A stretch of 11,921 bases of DNA, taken from positions 1 through 11,921 of the forward strand of contig JAEOSH010000060.1 in NCBI GenBank assembly GCA_016840465.1, given 5' to 3'. The DNA is from Candidatus Baldrarchaeum yapensis (GTDB lineage Archaea; Asgardarchaeota; Baldrarchaeia; Baldrarchaeales; Baldrarchaeaceae). Of the stretch, positions 378-7,873 are shown in pieces (the stretch's first letter is position 1; the number at the start of each line of letters is the position of its first letter). The notes beneath the pieces are model-generated. The model had not been told where the DNA came from, ran no database searches, and saw only the letters and a program-made list of their open reading frames with translations. The translations under genes were made by a program, and so were the position numbers.

Positions 378-3215
378 ATGTTGCAGGAGGAGGTTTTGAG
401 GTGCGCGGTTAAGAGACTCATGTACGGTAAGGATATTGAGGTGGTTGAGAAGTTTGACGGGTTTATGGAGAGCCTTTTGAGCGTTAGGATGGAGTGGGCT
501 CTAAAATTCATGGAGTATGTACTTAGAGAACTATCGTCACTTGAAGGTCGTGTATCTACGAGGAATTACTTATTACGTAGCTTAAGGGTCGTGGAGCGGG
601 CGTTTTACTGGCTTATAAGGATGGGGTTTGTCGAGGATGCGGCGACAGTTTTTAGGAGGATGTTCCTCTCGTTATTGAGGGAGAAGGTCTTCGAAATCTT
701 TAATGCGCTTATGGAGGTTTACGTTAATACATTTGTGGAGATGGGGGTAGACGGCGTCTTATCACCGATTGATGTTGCAAATGAGGTGAGCAATGCGCTA
801 GATGAGTGTAAGCGGTGCGAATATGATCTGGAAGTAGCGTTGAGGGAACTTTTTTCTGTTAAGTATCATCCATTTAGGTGGACTGAGCGCCTATCGCGTG
901 TGTGGTCCAGTGCTATTGGGAGGGCGGTCATGAAGAAGGTTTTGGCGGTGATACAGGAGTGCGGCGGTATTTTAGGGTGGATTCGGAGAATGGGGAGAAA
1001 GTTTAGGTTCAATTTTCTAAGAGCGTTAAAGGAGGTGGATTTGGATCTTGCAATTAAGGTTATCGACGAGTTATGCGTTAAAACCGGTGTGGAGGATGAC
1101 GTTCTTCGGGAATTGGTCTCTAAGGGAAGGCTTGATGAGGCAATTGTCTTTGTTCGGAGGCATTCTGATGATATTTCTCCCGTAGCGTTGCTTGAGTTTG
1201 CGTTCAACATGGTGAAGGCGGGAGTTATGGATGAGGGGTTAAGAGTTCTGGGAGATGTAGTGGAGCGTGGATGGTGTTGCGATGAGGCCTCTCAGGTTTT
1301 AGTGATGAGGATCGCGGATGCTTTGGCCTCAACAGGTAAATTTGAGAACCTAATAGCCATTGCGGAAAAGGGAGAGTTTTTGCATCTTATTCTCATAGGG
1401 CTACTTGCGGGCGGTCATTTTGACAGGGCATTGAAGGTTCTCAAGCGTCTATATGTTCGCGAGCGCTGGTGTGATGAGGAGGGTTTGAGGGCGTGCGAGG
1501 AGGCGCTACGCACCAGAGATATTAAGGAGCTACTCATTTTGATATCTGACGTTTTCAGGAAGTATCATCATATGGACAAAAGTGGTAAGAGTTGGCATAG
1601 TTGGTTTTCAGGCGTTGTTATTCCGGTGTTTTTGGATCTAGGGAACTTTGAGGGCGCGGTTGAGGCGATAAGGTTTTTGTTGGAGTCCATGATGAGGAGA
1701 ATTCCAGACGATGTCCATGAGGTTTGTTGCAGTATTATTCGTTCCGTGAGGAGGCTTATGGAGGAGGGATGGGTGGAAGTTGGATATGCGATGCTTATGG
1801 AAATTTTAAAGATAGCAATTAAGGGGCGTTTTCTCGGATCCCGTGGCAAGTACGTGTCGGATGTTCTTTTGGGAGTAGCAGAGACGTTCTTTTATCATGG
1901 TTTTAAGAGGGAGGCGGTGAAGATGTTAGAAGTTTTCATAAATCTGATAGATGAGCGGATGAGTGAGTGTTGTTCACAGCATCGTGCCTGTATTAGGAAG
2001 TACGGCTCATGTTTGTTGAAGGAATATGTGACATGCTTATTAGAGCTTGTTAAGATGATTAAGGGGCATTTGGATGATGTTTGCAAAGAGAAGTGCTATA
2101 TGAGGGCAATAGACGCGTTGGGCTGCATGGATCATGTCATGAGGGGATTTTTGTTGAGAGACATAGTCGAACACGCCCTATTATGCGATATAAGTCCTAA
2201 GGCCTTGAGGAATATTATGATCCGGGCTCTTCGGACGGTGGGAGTTGTACGAGGGGGAAAGGACAATGACGTTGCGACGAAGTTGGATTATTACCTTGCG
2301 ATTGGCGAGCTGTTGGAAATTTTAAGTGTTGATGTTTTTCGGAGGGCAATTGAACTCGGGAGGTACGATTTCTTCGACGAATATGTTTGTAGGAAGCTTG
2401 TTGAAATTGCGGATAGGATTTTAGAGAACGTTGGCGACGTCCTTCTCGCCTGGTACTTAAAGATTGCTGCTGGTGCGTACTTTATGCTAACGCATGTGAT
2501 TGGAAGGGTGCGAGAAGTCATTAATGCGGTTCGAGGCGTCATCCGAGATATGGAATCGTCAAGTGTGTTAAACGTCTTTGAAGCGTCATCGCTTATGAGC
2601 ATTCTTTTGTGCAAAGGTCTGCTAAGGGAGTCATGCGAGGACGTAATACTAGCAGAGCTTGTAAGGACGATATTATCGGGGAACATATATGTATTTGGTC
2701 GTGAGAGAGGGTTCATTGAGAATGTAATGACTTCAGTGAAGAAAGCGGTTCTTTCAAGGGTTCCATGCGGCAAAAGATCGTTTATAGAGAAAGCTATTAA
2801 CAACATATTATGCGATGACATACTTCGTGTAATAATCGCGTTAGAAATCTACGACATGGCCGTAAAGGACAAAGATAATCTTATGGAGGACGTATCTCGG
2901 GAGATTCTCGAGGCTATTAAGAGGCTCGAGATAAAATTGGGAGAAAGGCGGTGCAATTTATTAACAGAGGGCGTTAGGACGATTTTGTGCAGGAGGGGAG
3001 CAATTTATACCGAAAAATGCGTATCTATAGATATTGCCAAAGAATACATGAAATTGCTACCGCGTGCGTTGCTTAAGGGTTATGATGAGCATTCACTGAT
3101 ACCAATAGGTATCGTGTATGATTTTGAGGAAATTGAGGAGTTCACGAGGTTCGCGACAAAACTTGTGTTGATATGTTTATTTGATCACCTTAGATTGTTG
3201 CAATCGGGTGGTTAA
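378..3215 (+). CDS. Large alpha-helical repeat (TPR/PPR-like solenoid) protein, paralog A, 945 aa, Cys-rich
   Basis: Uninterrupted 2838-bp ORF. About 10 degenerate helix-G-xxx-[EA]-helix units (LVSKGRLDEAIVFV, MVKAGVMDEGLRVL, LLAGGHFDRALKVL, FLDLGNFEGAVEAI, FFYHGFKREAVKML). Collinear with the downstream ORF. No P-loop or catalytic motif recognised. Confidence 0.85.
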   Translation: MLQEEVLRCAVKRLMYGKDIEVVEKFDGFMESLLSVRMEWALKFMEYVLRELSSLEGRVSTRNYLLRSLRVVERAFYWLIRMGFVEDAATVFRRMFLSLLREKVFEIFNALMEVYVNTFVEMGVDGVLSPIDVANEVSNALDECKRCEYDLEVALRELFSVKYHPFRWTERLSRVWSSAIGRAVMKKVLAVIQECGGILGWIRRMGRKFRFNFLRALKEVDLDLAIKVIDELCVKTGVEDDVLRELVSKGRLDEAIVFVRRHSDDISPVALLEFAFNMVKAGVMDEGLRVLGDVVERGWCCDEASQVLVMRIADALASTGKFENLIAIAEKGEFLHLILIGLLAGGHFDRALKVLKRLYVRERWCDEEGLRACEEALRTRDIKELLILISDVFRKYHHMDKSGKSWHSWFSGVVIPVFLDLGNFEGAVEAIRFLLESMMRRIPDDVHEVCCSIIRSVRRLMEEGWVEVGYAMLMEILKIAIKGRFLGSRGKYVSDVLLGVAETFFYHGFKREAVKMLEVFINLIDERMSECCSQHRACIRKYGSCLLKEYVTCLLELVKMIKGHLDDVCKEKCYMRAIDALGCMDHVMRGFLLRDIVEHALLCDISPKALRNIMIRALRTVGVVRGGKDNDVATKLDYYLAIGELLEILSVDVFRRAIELGRYDFFDEYVCRKLVEIADRILENVGDVLLAWYLKIAAGAYFMLTHVIGRVREVINAVRGVIRDMESSSVLNVFEASSLMSILLCKGLLRESCEDVILAELVRTILSGNIYVFGRERGFIENVMTSVKKAVLSRVPCGKRSFIEKAINNILCDDILRVIIALEIYDMAVKDKDNLMEDVSREILEAIKRLEIKLGERRCNLLTEGVRTILCRRGAIYTEKCVSIDIAKEYMKLLPRALLKGYDEHSLIPIGIVYDFEEIEEFTRFATKLVLICLFDHLRLLQSGG

Positions 3216-3237
3216 TGTTTTAATCGTTCTTGAAAAC

Positions 3238-3243
3238 GAGGTG
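3238..3243 (+). promoter_or_regulatory. Shine-Dalgarno site of paralog B
   Basis: GAGGTG ends 6 nt before ATG3250. It supports 3250 over the TTG3181 start given in the track. Confidence 0.7.
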
Positions 3244-3249
3244 GAATTC

Positions 3250-6081
3250 ATGGAGCATCTTCTCAGGCGAGTGATTTGTGCGATTTCCCGGGAAAAAGAT
3301 CCCGAATTGTTCGGGGAACTTATGGAGTTTTTAAGAGTACGGGGAGTGAAGAGTGTTTTGACGGCGTTAAATAGCACATATAATTATTTACTTTCGCGAG
3401 TTGACACGGTGGAGCCGAATGATTTGGGTCTCCTTGAAGTGGTACTCTCTTGGCTTATGAGAATGAATATGACGAATGAAGCCGCATCGCTCTTTAGGAG
3501 TGTCTTTTCATCTCTAATAAGGCGTGGGAGACTTGAGGCGTTTTCTCCACTCATGAAGATCTACGGTCGGGTATTTGCATGTAGAGAGTCGGATGATGTT
3601 ATATCGGTAATCGAGAAAGTCGCAGATGATGTGCATAAAGCGTTGATTGCATGTAGAGATGAAAAAAGGAAATTTAAGAAATGTTTGGATAAACTCTTCA
3701 GGCCGGGAGCCATAGAATCTTTCGTTACATACGAGTCTCAGTATTGTGAATCTTCGCGTGTGTGGTCCAGCATTTTTGGCGCGCGGGTCATGGAGCGGAT
3801 TCTGGCAACAATGGAGGAGAGCGGGGGAGTCATTGAATGGATACGCGTAATGGAACAGAAGTCGAGAGACGACTTTCTGGAAGCATTAAAGGAGTACGAC
3901 CTCGACCTTGCAATAAAAGTAATTAACGAGTCGGGACTCGGCAGAGCAGTAAAGTACGATCTTGTATGCGATCTTATTTCGAATGGAAGAATGAGGGAGG
4001 CATTATCCTTTATTTGGCGGCATATTGAGAGTTTCTGTTATGAGGAGTTATTTGATTTTGCACTGAGTTTTGCAAAGGGCGGATTTATCGATGAAGCTAT
4101 CGATCTAGTAAGGTATACGATTGAGTCGCAATGGGGTGATGTTTTTGACTTCTTCGATACATCTGATAGTCAGATCACATTCATGGAAGTGTTAAAAGTC
4201 CTCCTGCCGGCAAGAAGAACCCTCTACTTGATCAATTTGGCAGATAAGTTATGCATATTGGAACATGTGGTAATGGCGGCAATTGCGGGGGGTTACTTTG
4301 ATCTAGCATGGGAAATCCTAAGGCGTGATTATATAATTTCTGGTTACACAAAGGAAGAGTTGGAAGCGTGTAGGAGGGCATTGCGCGCCGGGGATCTGAA
4401 AAGTGCATTGTTATCCGTATCTAAAGTGTTCCTGAAGAGGTTTGAAGGAGCGTACACAGATATCTATTACGATTATGAGGAGGAAGAGACGGCTCTCAAG
4501 TGGTTTTCGGAGTACGTGATTCCAGCGTTTATAAACATCGGGAACATTGAGGGTGCTGTTCAGATAGTTGAATTCATGCTCGATGCAATAAAATCAGGTA
4601 ACGTCGATAAGTACATAGACGCCTGCAGGAAGCTCGCTGATGCGGCATGTAAAGTTATGAGTGCAGGTCGTCCGGATTTTGGTCGTCGTGTGTTGATGGA
4701 TCTTTTAGCGCATCTCCTTACACACGAACACGAAGATGATATATGCGAAGTAACGTTTGCGTGGATAATAGAAACCGTTCTTAAAGCTATAGAAGGACTT
4801 TACACAAATGGGTTCCACGAAGATGCATTTAGAGTTCTGAATGGAGCCATAATGCTGCTCATGTCTCGCAAATATGAATACTGGAAGGAGCTCGCAACAC
4901 AAGTCTTTATTGAAGAAGTAACGCGAAATGTCATTAATCGCATGTATATGCGCGGACACCTAGATGATAAACGGTACGTGGAATATTATAGCTACTTATT
5001 GAGTATGGCGACCACTCTCTTATCGGGAAATGAGAGAAGCAATTGTCTTAAGCATATAATCTCATCGATGTTGGAAGTCGATCCGCCTAAAGGAGTATTT
5101 AAGGAGATTGTAATGAGATTACTCGAAGTTGTCGGGAATAAAGGGGGAGAGGAGGAAAGCATCTTTTGGGATGTAGACCTTGCCATTAGTGACATTTTAA
5201 GCGTGTTCAACTCTCATATTTATCTTAAGGCCCTAGAAAATAGAAGACTTGAGTACTTTGACCGTGATATTGCACGAAGGCTTGTAGAAATCGTTCACGT
5301 AATATCTCGTGAAACGAGAGGGTCGATTGATTGGAATTTGGTCGTGACGGTATGTGCGTACGGGCTAATAACCGAGATTAATGAAATAGGACACGAGATT
5401 TTAAGAACAATATGGCATAACGTATCATATGAGAAAAAATGGAGAATATTTGAAGTTCTTGACGAGTTATCGCTTTTGAGAGTTATGGCAGGGAGAATAC
5501 TTTCTTACGAGCGTGCTTTAAAAGAATTGTTGGATGCTCTATTTGAACGGTTGCTGAAAGTACCTATATTGGCCACTCAGAGAGATTCTCTATCTATCGA
5601 TGACCTGCTGGGCGCTATCGAAAGAGCACTACATGACGGTTTATTAAACGAGGAAAGAGAAGTCATAAAATGGGCCATCTCTCGGTTACTGGGCAATGAA
5701 TTTTTGCGTTTATTAATAGCGCTTGAAATCAGCAGGTACATTGCGAGTAAAGGGTCAAAGAAAGTAGCAATGAAACTCTTTGATGAAGTACTTGAACTCA
5801 TAAGTAGAACAAACTTTTCGTTGTATGGGATCGTTAATAACTGGGTTGTAGAGGGCATCAGAACGTTTCTGAACAAAACAGGGTCTAAATACACACAAGC
5901 ATTCGGCATTCATAACGTTCATGAGAAGTACTTAAAATCTCTTCCCTCACCGCTAATCTCCGATAATGAAGTTGGCCTATGTGAAAGGAATGTACGTCCT
6001 CATCATCTAATATCTCTAACAGTGCTGATGGCAAAACTTATGCTGATAAGCGTACTCTCCGTTATTATTCCCGTAAAATGA
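3250..6081 (+). CDS. Large alpha-helical repeat (TPR/PPR-like solenoid) protein, paralog B, 943 aa
   Basis: ATG3250-TGA6081. Same repeat units as paralog A (LISNGRMREALSFI, FAKGGFIDEAIDLV, AIAGGYFDLAWEIL, FINIGNIEGAVQIV, LYTNGFHEDAFRVL). The N-terminus aligns with paralog A when started at 3250. Confidence 0.85.
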   Translation: MEHLLRRVICAISREKDPELFGELMEFLRVRGVKSVLTALNSTYNYLLSRVDTVEPNDLGLLEVVLSWLMRMNMTNEAASLFRSVFSSLIRRGRLEAFSPLMKIYGRVFACRESDDVISVIEKVADDVHKALIACRDEKRKFKKCLDKLFRPGAIESFVTYESQYCESSRVWSSIFGARVMERILATMEESGGVIEWIRVMEQKSRDDFLEALKEYDLDLAIKVINESGLGRAVKYDLVCDLISNGRMREALSFIWRHIESFCYEELFDFALSFAKGGFIDEAIDLVRYTIESQWGDVFDFFDTSDSQITFMEVLKVLLPARRTLYLINLADKLCILEHVVMAAIAGGYFDLAWEILRRDYIISGYTKEELEACRRALRAGDLKSALLSVSKVFLKRFEGAYTDIYYDYEEEETALKWFSEYVIPAFINIGNIEGAVQIVEFMLDAIKSGNVDKYIDACRKLADAACKVMSAGRPDFGRRVLMDLLAHLLTHEHEDDICEVTFAWIIETVLKAIEGLYTNGFHEDAFRVLNGAIMLLMSRKYEYWKELATQVFIEEVTRNVINRMYMRGHLDDKRYVEYYSYLLSMATTLLSGNERSNCLKHIISSMLEVDPPKGVFKEIVMRLLEVVGNKGGEEESIFWDVDLAISDILSVFNSHIYLKALENRRLEYFDRDIARRLVEIVHVISRETRGSIDWNLVVTVCAYGLITEINEIGHEILRTIWHNVSYEKKWRIFEVLDELSLLRVMAGRILSYERALKELLDALFERLLKVPILATQRDSLSIDDLLGAIERALHDGLLNEEREVIKWAISRLLGNEFLRLLIALEISRYIASKGSKKVAMKLFDEVLELISRTNFSLYGIVNNWVVEGIRTFLNKTGSKYTQAFGIHNVHEKYLKSLPSPLISDNEVGLCERNVRPHHLISLTVLMAKLMLISVLSVIIPVK

Positions 6082-6654: not shown

Positions 6655-6716
6655 TGAAAGGACAAGGTAAGGCAGAGGTATTGCACTGGTAGTTGTGTGG
6701 CGTGGTAGGGGCGGTT

Positions 6717-6807
6717 GCCCCGGTGGTGTAGCCCGGTCAAGCATGCGGGCCTTTCGAGCGCTGGGTGGAGATAGCCCGCGACCCGGGTTCAAATCCCGGC
6801 CGGGGCA
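6717..6807 (+). tRNA. tRNA-Glu(UUC) with a 16-nt intron; CCA not encoded
   Basis: Acceptor GCCCCGG/CCGGGGC, D stem GTGT/GCAT, anticodon stem CGGGC/GCCCG, anticodon TTC at 6753-6755, T arm CCGGG-TTCAAAT-CCCGG, discriminator A6807 followed by CTA. Confidence 0.96.
6757..6772 (+). other. tRNA intron at canonical position 37/38 with a bulge-helix-bulge motif
   Basis: Intron AGCGCTGGGTGGAGAT. Central helix CTTT/GGAG (two G-U pairs), 3-nt bulges CG^A and AT^A. Removing it restores the 7-nt anticodon loop CTTTCGA. Confidence 0.9.
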
Positions 6808-6810
6808 CTA

Positions 6811-6820: not shown

Positions 6821-6913
6821 CATGTGGATATGCGGGGTTCACCATTCTATGGGATTAAATATTATCGGGAGGACAGTATAAGGGGATTTTGTAGGGTTCA
6901 GGGTGTGGCCACC

Positions 6914-7342
6914 ATGATAAGGGAGAAGATTCTGGAGGCGCTTAGGGAGCCGTCGACGGTGACGGAGTTGGTCAAGAAGCTGGGTAGGTCGAGTGAGCAC
7001 ATCAAGCGTGTGCTCAGGGAATTGGAAAGGGAAGGACTTGTGAGGTCGAAAAGCATAGGGAGGATGAAGATCTACTGGGTGGAGCAGGCCGTGGGAGGAG
7101 TGGAGGAGCTGGAGAGGAGGGTAAAAGAGCTGGAGGAGGAGTTAGAAAGGCTGCGTGAGGAGAATCGGAAGTTGAGGGAGGAGGCAGCGCGACCGGGCGA
7201 GATGGACAGGTTATGGGAGAAGTTGGAGGAATGGAAGGAGTATGCTTTCAAGCTTGCTGACATCATTGCATATCAGCGGGGAATGACGGTCAAGGAGGTA
7301 CTGAAAGAGACGGGCGCGCCGCTCGAGGAAGAGGAGGAATGA
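6914..7342 (+). CDS. Winged-helix + leucine-zipper + small C-terminal helical domain protein (142 aa); candidate Hop2/Mnd1/Swi5-like
   Basis: ATG6914 has an SD-like GGGTG at 6901-6905; the track's 6695 start runs through the tRNA. aa1-58 form a wHTH ending GLVRSKSIGRMKIYW. aa63-91 are heptads (L66 V70 L73 L77 L80 N84 L87). The C-terminus is KEYAFKLADIIAYQRGMTVKEVLKETG. The CDS is secure; the family call is inference. Confidence 0.85.
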   Translation: MIREKILEALREPSTVTELVKKLGRSSEHIKRVLRELEREGLVRSKSIGRMKIYWVEQAVGGVEELERRVKELEEELERLREENRKLREEAARPGEMDRLWEKLEEWKEYAFKLADIIAYQRGMTVKEVLKETGAPLEEEEE

Positions 7343-7417: not shown

Positions 7418-7873
7418 GTGGAGCCTCCACTTCCCATTGTCAGATCGCCGACACATAGAAGGAAAATGAGGTTTGGGAAGGGCTTTAGCATTGGGGAATT
7501 GAAGGCTGTGGGGCTAACGGCGGGTGAGGCTCAAAATTTAGGTATTTACGTTGACAAGCGTAGGAAGAGCGTGAGAGAGGAGAACATTGAGAGATTAAAG
7601 AAGTACCTGGAGGAGATAGGATGGGAGCCCGGAAAGTCAAAGTACCCGAAGGTCAGCAAGGAGGTCGTGGAGGAGCTGATGAAGGTTGAAGGCGTCAACA
7701 TCCATGTAGCAAGGATACTCGCGAAGAAGGGAGGGATCTCATCGATAAAGGAACTTGCGGAGAGCGATATTGACGAACTTGCGAAGAAGACGGGATATTC
7801 TAAAAGTAGGATCAATAGATGGGTGGAATACGCGAAGAAATTATTAGAATCCATCGCTACCGCAGCACAATAA
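7418..7873 (+). CDS. rpl13e: 50S ribosomal protein L13e (eL13) with a C-terminal helix-hairpin-helix domain
   Basis: The L13e signature RFGKGFSIGELKAVGL...LGIYVDKRRKS..EENIERLK fills aa1-68. aa87-142 read as a tandem HhH (LMKVEGV...ARILAKKGGISSIKELAESDIDELAKKTGYS...INRWVEYAK). GTG start with GGAGG SD. Confidence 0.92.
   Translation: MEPPLPIVRSPTHRRKMRFGKGFSIGELKAVGLTAGEAQNLGIYVDKRRKSVREENIERLKKYLEEIGWEPGKSKYPKVSKEVVEELMKVEGVNIHVARILAKKGGISSIKELAESDIDELAKKTGYSKSRINRWVEYAKKLLESIATAAQ

Follow-up and report, generated by a model that had tools for sequence, protein, structure and literature searches.

An Asgard archaeal protein with a Mnd1/Hop2-like winged helix and a Swi5-like C-terminal end is a candidate RadA cofactor

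To our knowledge, Hop2–Mnd1 and Swi5–Sfr1 (Mei5–Sae3) are regarded as eukaryote-specific helpers of the recombinases Rad51 and Dmc1, and Hop2 and Mnd1 serve as standard markers of the "meiotic toolkit". The two complexes are structurally akin, and both dock in the groove of the Rad51/Dmc1 filament (PMC4402518). Here, we describe a gene from the Asgard archaeon Candidatus Baldrarchaeum yapensis, found in positions 1 to 11,921 of contig JAEOSH010000060.1 (assembly GCA_016840465.1; hereafter the window), that encodes a 142-amino acid (aa) protein in which a winged helix resembling those of Mnd1 and Hop2 is followed by a C-terminal half resembling Swi5. The gene is probably a homologue of the Hop2/Mnd1/Swi5 group, a kinship that is well supported. 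To the explanation as a whole, in which the product would be a small homodimeric DNA-binding member of this group that acts as a cofactor of the host RadA, we give odds slightly better than even, a probability of about 0.55.

Our literature search returned no paper linking Asgard archaea with homologues of Mnd1 or Hop2, and a single preprint linking them with Swi5. That preprint (PMC13734099, October 2026) lists "Swi5/Sae3" among Asgard–eukaryote structural clusters that are new as eukaryotic signature proteins; the cluster, which may correspond to the family reported here, has weak direct connectivity and carries no description. The RadA of the Heimdall group has been placed nearest Rad51/Dmc1 in a study that leaves cofactors unmentioned (bioRxiv 10.1101/2025.02.19.639135), and the same group (here Hodarchaeales) is described in a recent preprint as sister to eukaryotes. 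What is new in the present family is one short prokaryotic chain, probably homodimeric, that joins a Mnd1/Hop2 head with a Swi5-type end.

The gene occupies 6914–7342 on the forward strand, with an ATG at 6914, 142 codons and a stop at 7340–7342. A longer alternative frame opens at a GTG at 6695; because that frame traverses a tRNA-Glu gene at 6717–6808, and because homologues begin at the same Met as the 6914 ATG, we place the start at 6914. The calls of 199, 215 and 170 aa made in public records for this cluster extend too far and wrongly read through the tRNA. A monomer model computed with AlphaFold2 (AF2) from a 20-sequence alignment reached a mean predicted local distance difference test (pLDDT) score of 85.7, and it contains every element that an initial annotation, made by reading the sequence, had listed: the winged helix-turn-helix, an Asn-bearing zipper, an Arg-Pro-Gly kink, a second helix, an Arg-Gly turn, a short helix and an acidic tail. 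The features of the gene are as follows.

6914..7342, + strand: whole gene, Asgard Mnd1/Hop2/Swi5-like protein (P0001), from translation, the Pfam Swi5 match, homologues and AF2
6914..7087, + strand: winged helix-turn-helix, aa 1–58, a probable DNA-binding domain, from AF2, Pfam and the family profile
7100..7189, + strand: leucine zipper 1, aa 63–92, with Asn84 at a core position, from the AF2 helix and dimer-model contacts
7190..7198, + strand: kink R93-P94-G95, a helix break in both AF2 models
7199..7279, + strand: leucine zipper 2, aa 96–122, with the family-invariant Trp107, from the AF2 helix and self contacts
7280..7321, + strand: G-x-T turn, capping helix (aa 126–133) and G-A-P motif, a Swi5-like signature, from Pfam Swi5, AF2 and the dimer model
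7322..7339, + strand: acidic tail LEEEEE, read from the sequence

In the AF2 model, the winged helix is built of helices at residues 2–9, 16–23 and 27–40 and strands at 43–48 and 51–56, and it carries a net charge of +5 with an isoelectric point (pI) of 10.1. Asn84 of zipper 1 takes a core "a" position, and in the dimer model described below the core contacts of this zipper run through residues 66, 70, 73, 77, 80, 84 and 87, while the self contacts of zipper 2 run through 100, 104, 107, 111, 114 and 118. The proline of the kink is kept in the Baldrarchaeial subfamily (RPG, KPD, KPH), and other members have a gap or non-helical residues at this place. A turn at R122-G123 leads into the helix at 126–133 and then into G134-A-P, and the terminal LEEEEE has a low pLDDT (41) and is disordered in the model.

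Conservation within the family is highest in the tail and not in the DNA-binding helix: W107 is invariant in both family alignments, L130 is likewise invariant and P136 nearly so, and an acidic or aromatic C-terminal end recurs across members. All 20 members show the same split of charge, with winged helices of pI 9.1–10.8 and tails of pI 4.1–5.7. Homologues at 50–65% identity keep the same architecture, as do distant ones at ~30%, and the arrangement is therefore not due to chance.

The resemblance of the C-terminal half to Swi5/Sae3, which the initial annotation had noted, was recovered by profile search. Pfam Swi5 (PF07061, with a profile length of 80 and a curated gathering cut-off of 22.1 bits) is the top match of the whole protein, at 28.5 bits over aa 66–135. 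Because coiled coils draw spurious matches, we searched the C-terminal region in split pieces. Residues 60–142 alone matched PF07061 with 31.6 bits (expectation value E 1.7e-7) over profile positions 1–77 of 80; for aa 96–142 alone, Swi5 was the sole real match (21.0 bits, E 3.6e-4, profile positions 48–77 of 80); and aa 60–95, which hold zipper 1, drew generic coiled-coil families only in Pfam, with no Swi5 match. The Swi5 signal sits in the last 47 residues and not in generic coiled coil. By comparison, other coiled-coil proteins of the same genome reached at most 14.9 bits against this profile and covered positions 1–51 only.

The same signal recurs elsewhere in the family. When member tails were searched alone in Pfam, Swi5 was the top match for four others (E 3.6e-5 to 0.018) and second for one (P0004, E 0.11), and three further tails gave no Swi5 match; 9 of the 20 members match Swi5 in Pfam. 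When 400 Asgard genomes were scanned in all six frames with PF07061, five matches exceeded the cut-off. Four of them belong to this family, with the present gene scoring best, and the fifth is confined to the coiled-coil portion of the profile; the corresponding scan of control genomes placed none of 14 over the cut-off. We set aside a Swi5 match in a 459-aa frame of another genome (G102), which covers profile positions 12–56 and is coiled coil only.

At the family level, the winged helix points to Mnd1 and Hop2, the two proteins to which its wing had first been likened. In a search of PDB with the family profile, the best match was Giardia Mnd1 (4y66_A, E 1e-6); the mouse Hop2 winged helix (2mh2, E 0.0015) came next and Phr (E 0.0023) after it, and phmmer aligned Giardia Mnd1 4y66_A with the present protein over aa 13–96. 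Of the 20 members, 14 match the Mnd1 helix-turn-helix (HTH) family in Pfam, as against 2 that match TrmB. This count and the above-threshold Swi5 match of the C-terminal half differ from the outcome that the initial annotation had named as a refutation, a C-terminal domain lacking such a match in a protein grouped with ArsR/TrmB-type regulators. LZ3wCH (PF18517), the C-terminal domain of Hop2 and Mnd1, matched one distant member (P0012; 19.2 bits, E 0.0012, cut-off 26.1); the present protein gave no match to it, and its gene is absent from an LZ3wCH scan of its own genome.

Fold comparison gave the same families, so that the overall likeness to Hop2, Mnd1 and Swi5 was detected by profile and by fold alike. 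When the whole model was compared with Swiss-Prot models by Foldseek, ranks 1–15 were all Mnd1 or Hop2, with Mnd1 at the top, aligned to residues 2–139 of the query at E 9e-5 to 1.4e-3; these proteins come from animals, plants, fungi and Dictyostelium and share 15–24% identity with the query. A search of AlphaFold Database clusters again returned Mnd1 and Hop2 together with one Swi5-domain protein, and in PDB the best matches were the Hop2 winged helix 2mh2 (E 7.6e-4) and Hop2–Mnd1 4y66. Template modelling (TM) scores are low (~0.35), owing to differences in how the rods bend. Modelled by itself in AF2, the C-terminal half reached a pLDDT of 87.8, and in a VIA-align comparison of this model with 48,161 chains Swi5 (3viq_B) ranked first, at Z 6.2 over 80 of 85 residues with a root-mean-square deviation of 9.5; this match is consistent with Swi5 kinship and not decisive. 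An ESM Atlas feature search was uninformative, with scores of at most 0.86 that fell on bacterial clusters.

The initial annotation had also proposed a homodimer, and the complex model supports one. Co-folding of two chains gave an interface score (ipSAE, an interaction prediction score from aligned errors) of 0.57, as against 0.00 for the best of three controls. Among proteins solved as same-chain pairs, 20 of 30 attain the level of 0.57, and among those solved as single chains, 1 of 23. Across three runs at least 94% of contacts agreed, and the partner pLDDT was at least 80. The predicted dimer is parallel and in register along both zippers, and residues 133–136 of each chain pack onto 110, 114 and 117 of the partner, a capped parallel bundle of the arrangement described for Swi5–Sfr1C and for the LZ3wCH end of Hop2–Mnd1 (PMC4402518). 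Gene content agrees with pairing of like chains. The source genome (2.27 Mb in 100 contigs, 96% complete) holds a single copy of the family gene and of its C-terminal module, shows no match to Mei5/Sfr1 (PF10376) at E up to 0.1, and in our search held no other Mnd1-like winged helix outscoring that of the present protein.

Copy number differs in one Heimdall-group genome. Candidatus Heimdallarchaeota archaeon G027, the sole genome with two paralogues among those searched, carries a 151-aa form at L020:1498–1950 (+) and a 278-aa form at L044:928–1761 (+), which share 25% identity and have A-P-x-Y as their last residues. An N-terminal low-complexity extension and a longer coiled coil distinguish the long form, which recurs in other metagenome-assembled genomes (MAGs; P0028, P0070–P0073), and one long-form protein carries a precomputed Pfam PF27605 assignment. 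The short and long paralogues of G027 could be a Hop2/Mnd1-like pair.

Several observations count against a recombinase cofactor. Those listed first would also suit a different account, in which we are dealing with a common kind of archaeal dimer, a transcription factor or chromatin protein of the Phr, TrmB or ArsR type, and the Swi5 likeness is a short helical motif without functional meaning. Taken by itself, the present winged helix scored 26.8 bits against TrmB, 23.4 against MarR, 23.3 against Mnd1 HTH (PF03962) and 20.1 against TBPIP (PF07106); with Pfam cut-offs of 25.6, 23.5 and 22.8 bits for TrmB, Mnd1 HTH and TBPIP, it passes the TrmB threshold (aa 11–54) and falls just under that of Mnd1 HTH. 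NCBIfam, which has no model for the family, gave only weak matches of the ArsR/SmtB, MsvR, Sul12a and Sso10a types, far below cut-offs. Phr (2p4w), a transcription factor with a winged helix and a coiled coil, ranks close behind Hop2–Mnd1 whether matches are ordered by sequence profile or by Foldseek. The rigid winged-helix fold is structurally generic, with VIA Z scores of ~11 to ArsR, MarR and Zalpha, and whole-model VIA comparison aligns the winged helix only and does not separate Hop2/Mnd1 from these three. Finally, at the family loci inspected, neither radA nor a repair gene of any kind forms part of a conserved neighbourhood.

Other findings speak against a plain regulator: conservation peaks in the tail, at W107, L130 and P136, and this tail independently matches Swi5 in several members; there is no ligand-sensing domain; outside the winged helix no regulator family is matched; and the first fifteen whole-length Foldseek ranks, like the 14-to-2 count of members, favour Mnd1 and Hop2. 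By profile scores, the winged helix is ambiguous for the present protein alone and is not ambiguous at the family level, where Mnd1 HTH prevails over TrmB. We consider the regulator unlikely, if still to be reckoned with.

The remaining points against a Hop2/Mnd1/Swi5 homologue concern its C-terminal half and the dimer. Family profiles of the C-terminal half and of the tail failed to retrieve S. pombe Swi5 (3viq_B) from PDB sequences, the first giving only GCN4-type zippers among the matches listed and the second nothing meaningful, and a phmmer search of PDB sequences with the tail of P0007 did not retrieve it either; the Swi5 link therefore rests on the Pfam profile and not on a single pairwise match. 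The VIA score of 6.2 for Swi5 lies within 1 of the second rank, a statistical tie, and in a range common for helical models, and a Foldseek search of PDB with the C-terminal model gave nothing at E <3, with Swi5 chains at ranks 2 and 18. The success of the dimer model may partly reflect its memory of leucine zippers and of Hop2–Mnd1. In addition, most members end in F-G-[A/V]-P, and the conserved Phe of this motif is Thr133 in the present protein (T133-G-A-P) and in its Baldrarchaeial relatives. By the alignment given in the initial annotation, that Phe would correspond to the RAD51-binding Phe of SWI5. For SWI5 itself, the C-terminus is required for RAD51 binding, as are the conserved C-terminal Phe and Leu (F83 and L85 in the mouse protein; PMC5291256).

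We examined how widely the family occurs and found it to be very small. A HMMER scan of 1.84 billion representative proteins gave 19 matches at E up to 1e-3, of which ~9 are full-length relatives. The named members come from Baldrarchaeota/Baldrarchaeia, Hodarchaeales (including Candidatus Hodarchaeum mangrovi and B3_Heim), "Heimdallarchaeota" and one "Odinarchaeota" MAG, and every public annotation seen for them reads "hypothetical protein". A profile search of the 400 Asgard genomes found full-length matches in ~14, distributed over the gene's own order (f1, and two of four genomes in f2), Hodarchaeales (8 of 22 genomes in f21), genome G106 of the related family f22, and the Heimdall-group genome G027. 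A second f22 genome (G107) has a C-terminal fragment at a contig end, and the largest Asgard families, f9 (135 genomes), f7 (86) and f5 (31), contain no full-length match. Among 953 other archaeal genomes (401 Thermoproteota, 301 Halobacteriota and 251 Methanobacteriota), the search found nothing beyond winged-helix matches, and proteins matching in that domain only are not family members. In the genomes searched the family is thus restricted to Asgard archaea and patchy within them, which bears on the Asgard versus TACK comparison suggested in the initial annotation.

One further candidate was rejected. A 288-aa protein (P0069; L043:191–1054, +) in genome G037 matched the C-terminal part of the profile and is a repetitive coiled coil with a separate globular C-terminal region, not a member. 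It consists of a near-perfect tandem 17-residue coiled-coil repeat (…IREEMKQQNEEIKS…) followed by a non-repetitive C-terminal region.

A patchy distribution, with full-length copies in ~14 of 400 genomes and none in f9, f7 or f5, is also what would be expected if a few Asgard lineages had gained a Swi5, Mnd1 or Hop2 homologue from eukaryotes by horizontal transfer and kept a derived, shortened copy. Against such a transfer stand the low identity to eukaryotic proteins in the Foldseek alignments, the lack of any eukaryotic protein among the matches of a phmmer scan of the 1.84 billion representatives, and a two-zipper architecture that fits neither Swi5, which has no winged helix, nor Mnd1 and Hop2, which have three zippers. 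The occurrence of the family in two Asgard classes at ~30% identity further implies age, and we judge gain from eukaryotes improbable.

If the protein is a RadA cofactor, its architecture suggests how it might act. Two chains would pair in parallel and in register through the two leucine zippers parted by the Pro-Gly kink. At one end of this rod, two basic winged helices would lie side by side and hold double-stranded DNA, as in Hop2–Mnd1; at the other, the partner's C-terminal helix would cap zipper 2 and so complete a small helical bundle, as in Swi5–Sfr1C and the LZ3wCH of Hop2–Mnd1. The capped end and the acidic tail could then dock on the filament formed by the host RadA, which the genome encodes at G000:C86:2704–3423, on single-stranded DNA, and docking would either stabilise the filament or deliver duplex DNA to it for strand invasion. 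DNA binding, RadA contact and an effect on recombination are plausible by homology and from the published work on Hop2–Mnd1 and Swi5–Sfr1.

The architecture itself dictates only two DNA-binding heads and a protein-docking end, and the same dimeric rod could instead be a tethering or bridging adaptor in chromosome organisation, segregation or replication restart, with a partner other than RadA. The specific sequence match, however, is to Swi5, which is not known to act other than with Rad51/Dmc1, and we think an adaptor of this kind has little chance of being the right description.

The presence of such a chain in archaea suggests that some of the machinery of recombination, and of meiosis, is older than eukaryotes. 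A stronger proposal, which we put forward tentatively and think rather less probable than not, is that the family descends directly from a single-gene, homodimeric ancestor of Hop2, Mnd1 and Swi5 and already works with the Asgard RadA filament. Hop2, Mnd1 and Swi5 would then have arisen by duplication, by extension of the stalk and, for Swi5, by loss of the winged helix, and the two-paralogue state of G027 would be either an independent step or the first step towards a heterodimer. Were this true, the recombinase-cofactor machinery of meiosis and mitotic repair would predate eukaryogenesis. The family offers a concrete, testable model for the origin of the Hop2/Mnd1/Swi5 cofactors and a minimal system, expected to be thermostable, in which to study the action of rods of this kind on the filament of a recombinase; should it prove to be a plain regulator, its value would be smaller and would lie in a caution against reading short helical motifs as homology.

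In the window, the same-strand neighbours of the gene are the tRNA-Glu gene upstream and, 76 nucleotides (nt) downstream, a gene for an L13e fusion protein. A putative promoter element was noted by eye between the tRNA and the start codon:

6855..6865, + strand: putative archaeal TATA-like box (TTAAATATTAT), ~50 nt upstream of the ATG, by-eye reading only

The tRNA-Glu(UUC) gene at 6717–6808 (+) spans 92 nt, ~17 nt above the standard tRNA length, and the extra length makes an intron probable. The downstream gene at 7418–7873 (+) joins ribosomal protein L13e (aa 1–70) to a C-terminal helix-hairpin-helix (HHH_5) domain; the L13e part scores 82.6 in NCBIfam, under the cut-off of 96. Farther away lie two tandem paralogues of ~950 aa, a myo-inositol-1-phosphate synthase and a Cdc48 ATPase. 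The Cdc48 shares 79% identity with its counterpart in a "Candidatus Baldrarchaeota" MAG, genome G002 of the same order, as expected for a Baldrarchaeia-like host. The tandem genes, at 378–3215 (+) and 3181–6081 (+), overlap by 35 nt and encode proteins of 945 and 966 aa that share 29% identity over ~890 residues (E 4e-97), with no significant Pfam match (best E 0.07) and no NCBIfam match at all. The guanine-cytosine content of this region (0.39–0.48) is lower than that of the adjacent housekeeping genes (0.50–0.54).

At other family loci, the neighbours are TGT, GNAT acetyltransferases, a Cdc48 N-domain protein and proteins of no known family. A 300–320-aa protein (P0068) adjoins the family gene tail-to-tail in Hodarchaeales and the related family f22 (L025:1932–2849 (-), L021:460–1431 (+), with counterparts in L026–L032). 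It has no Pfam or NCBIfam match and is the sole neighbour of the family gene kept beyond one genus.

Compared with known systems, the protein shares with Mnd1 an N-terminal winged helix bearing an I-G-x-x-x-Y-W wing and, immediately after it, a parallel coiled coil with a capped bundle at its end. Mnd1 is longer, having ~205 aa, three zippers and two kinks as against 142 aa, two zippers and one kink, and it pairs with its paralogue Hop2, whereas the present gene is single-copy. Hop2 (TBPIP, PSMC3IP) likewise combines a winged helix, a kinked coiled coil and a capping helix, and it differs as Mnd1 does in length (~200–230 aa for the two proteins), in zipper number and in its heterodimeric state. 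Phr of P. furiosus, of the ArsR type, is also archaeal and dimeric, with a winged helix that leads into long helices forming a coiled-coil stalk; its alignment with the present protein is limited to the winged helix and a portion of the stalk, and it is a sequence-specific repressor that regulates the heat-shock response. In its models, the protein shows the same succession of elements as Swi5/Sae3, from a first zipper through a kink to a second zipper and then, after a turn, to a short capping helix with a G-x-P-type motif at its end, and a parallel coiled-coil dimer is predicted here and described for Swi5 (PMC4402518). Swi5 has no winged helix and forms a heterodimer with Sfr1/Mei5, whereas in the Asgard protein a winged helix is fused to the N-terminus and a single-copy gene would supply both chains of the predicted homodimer.

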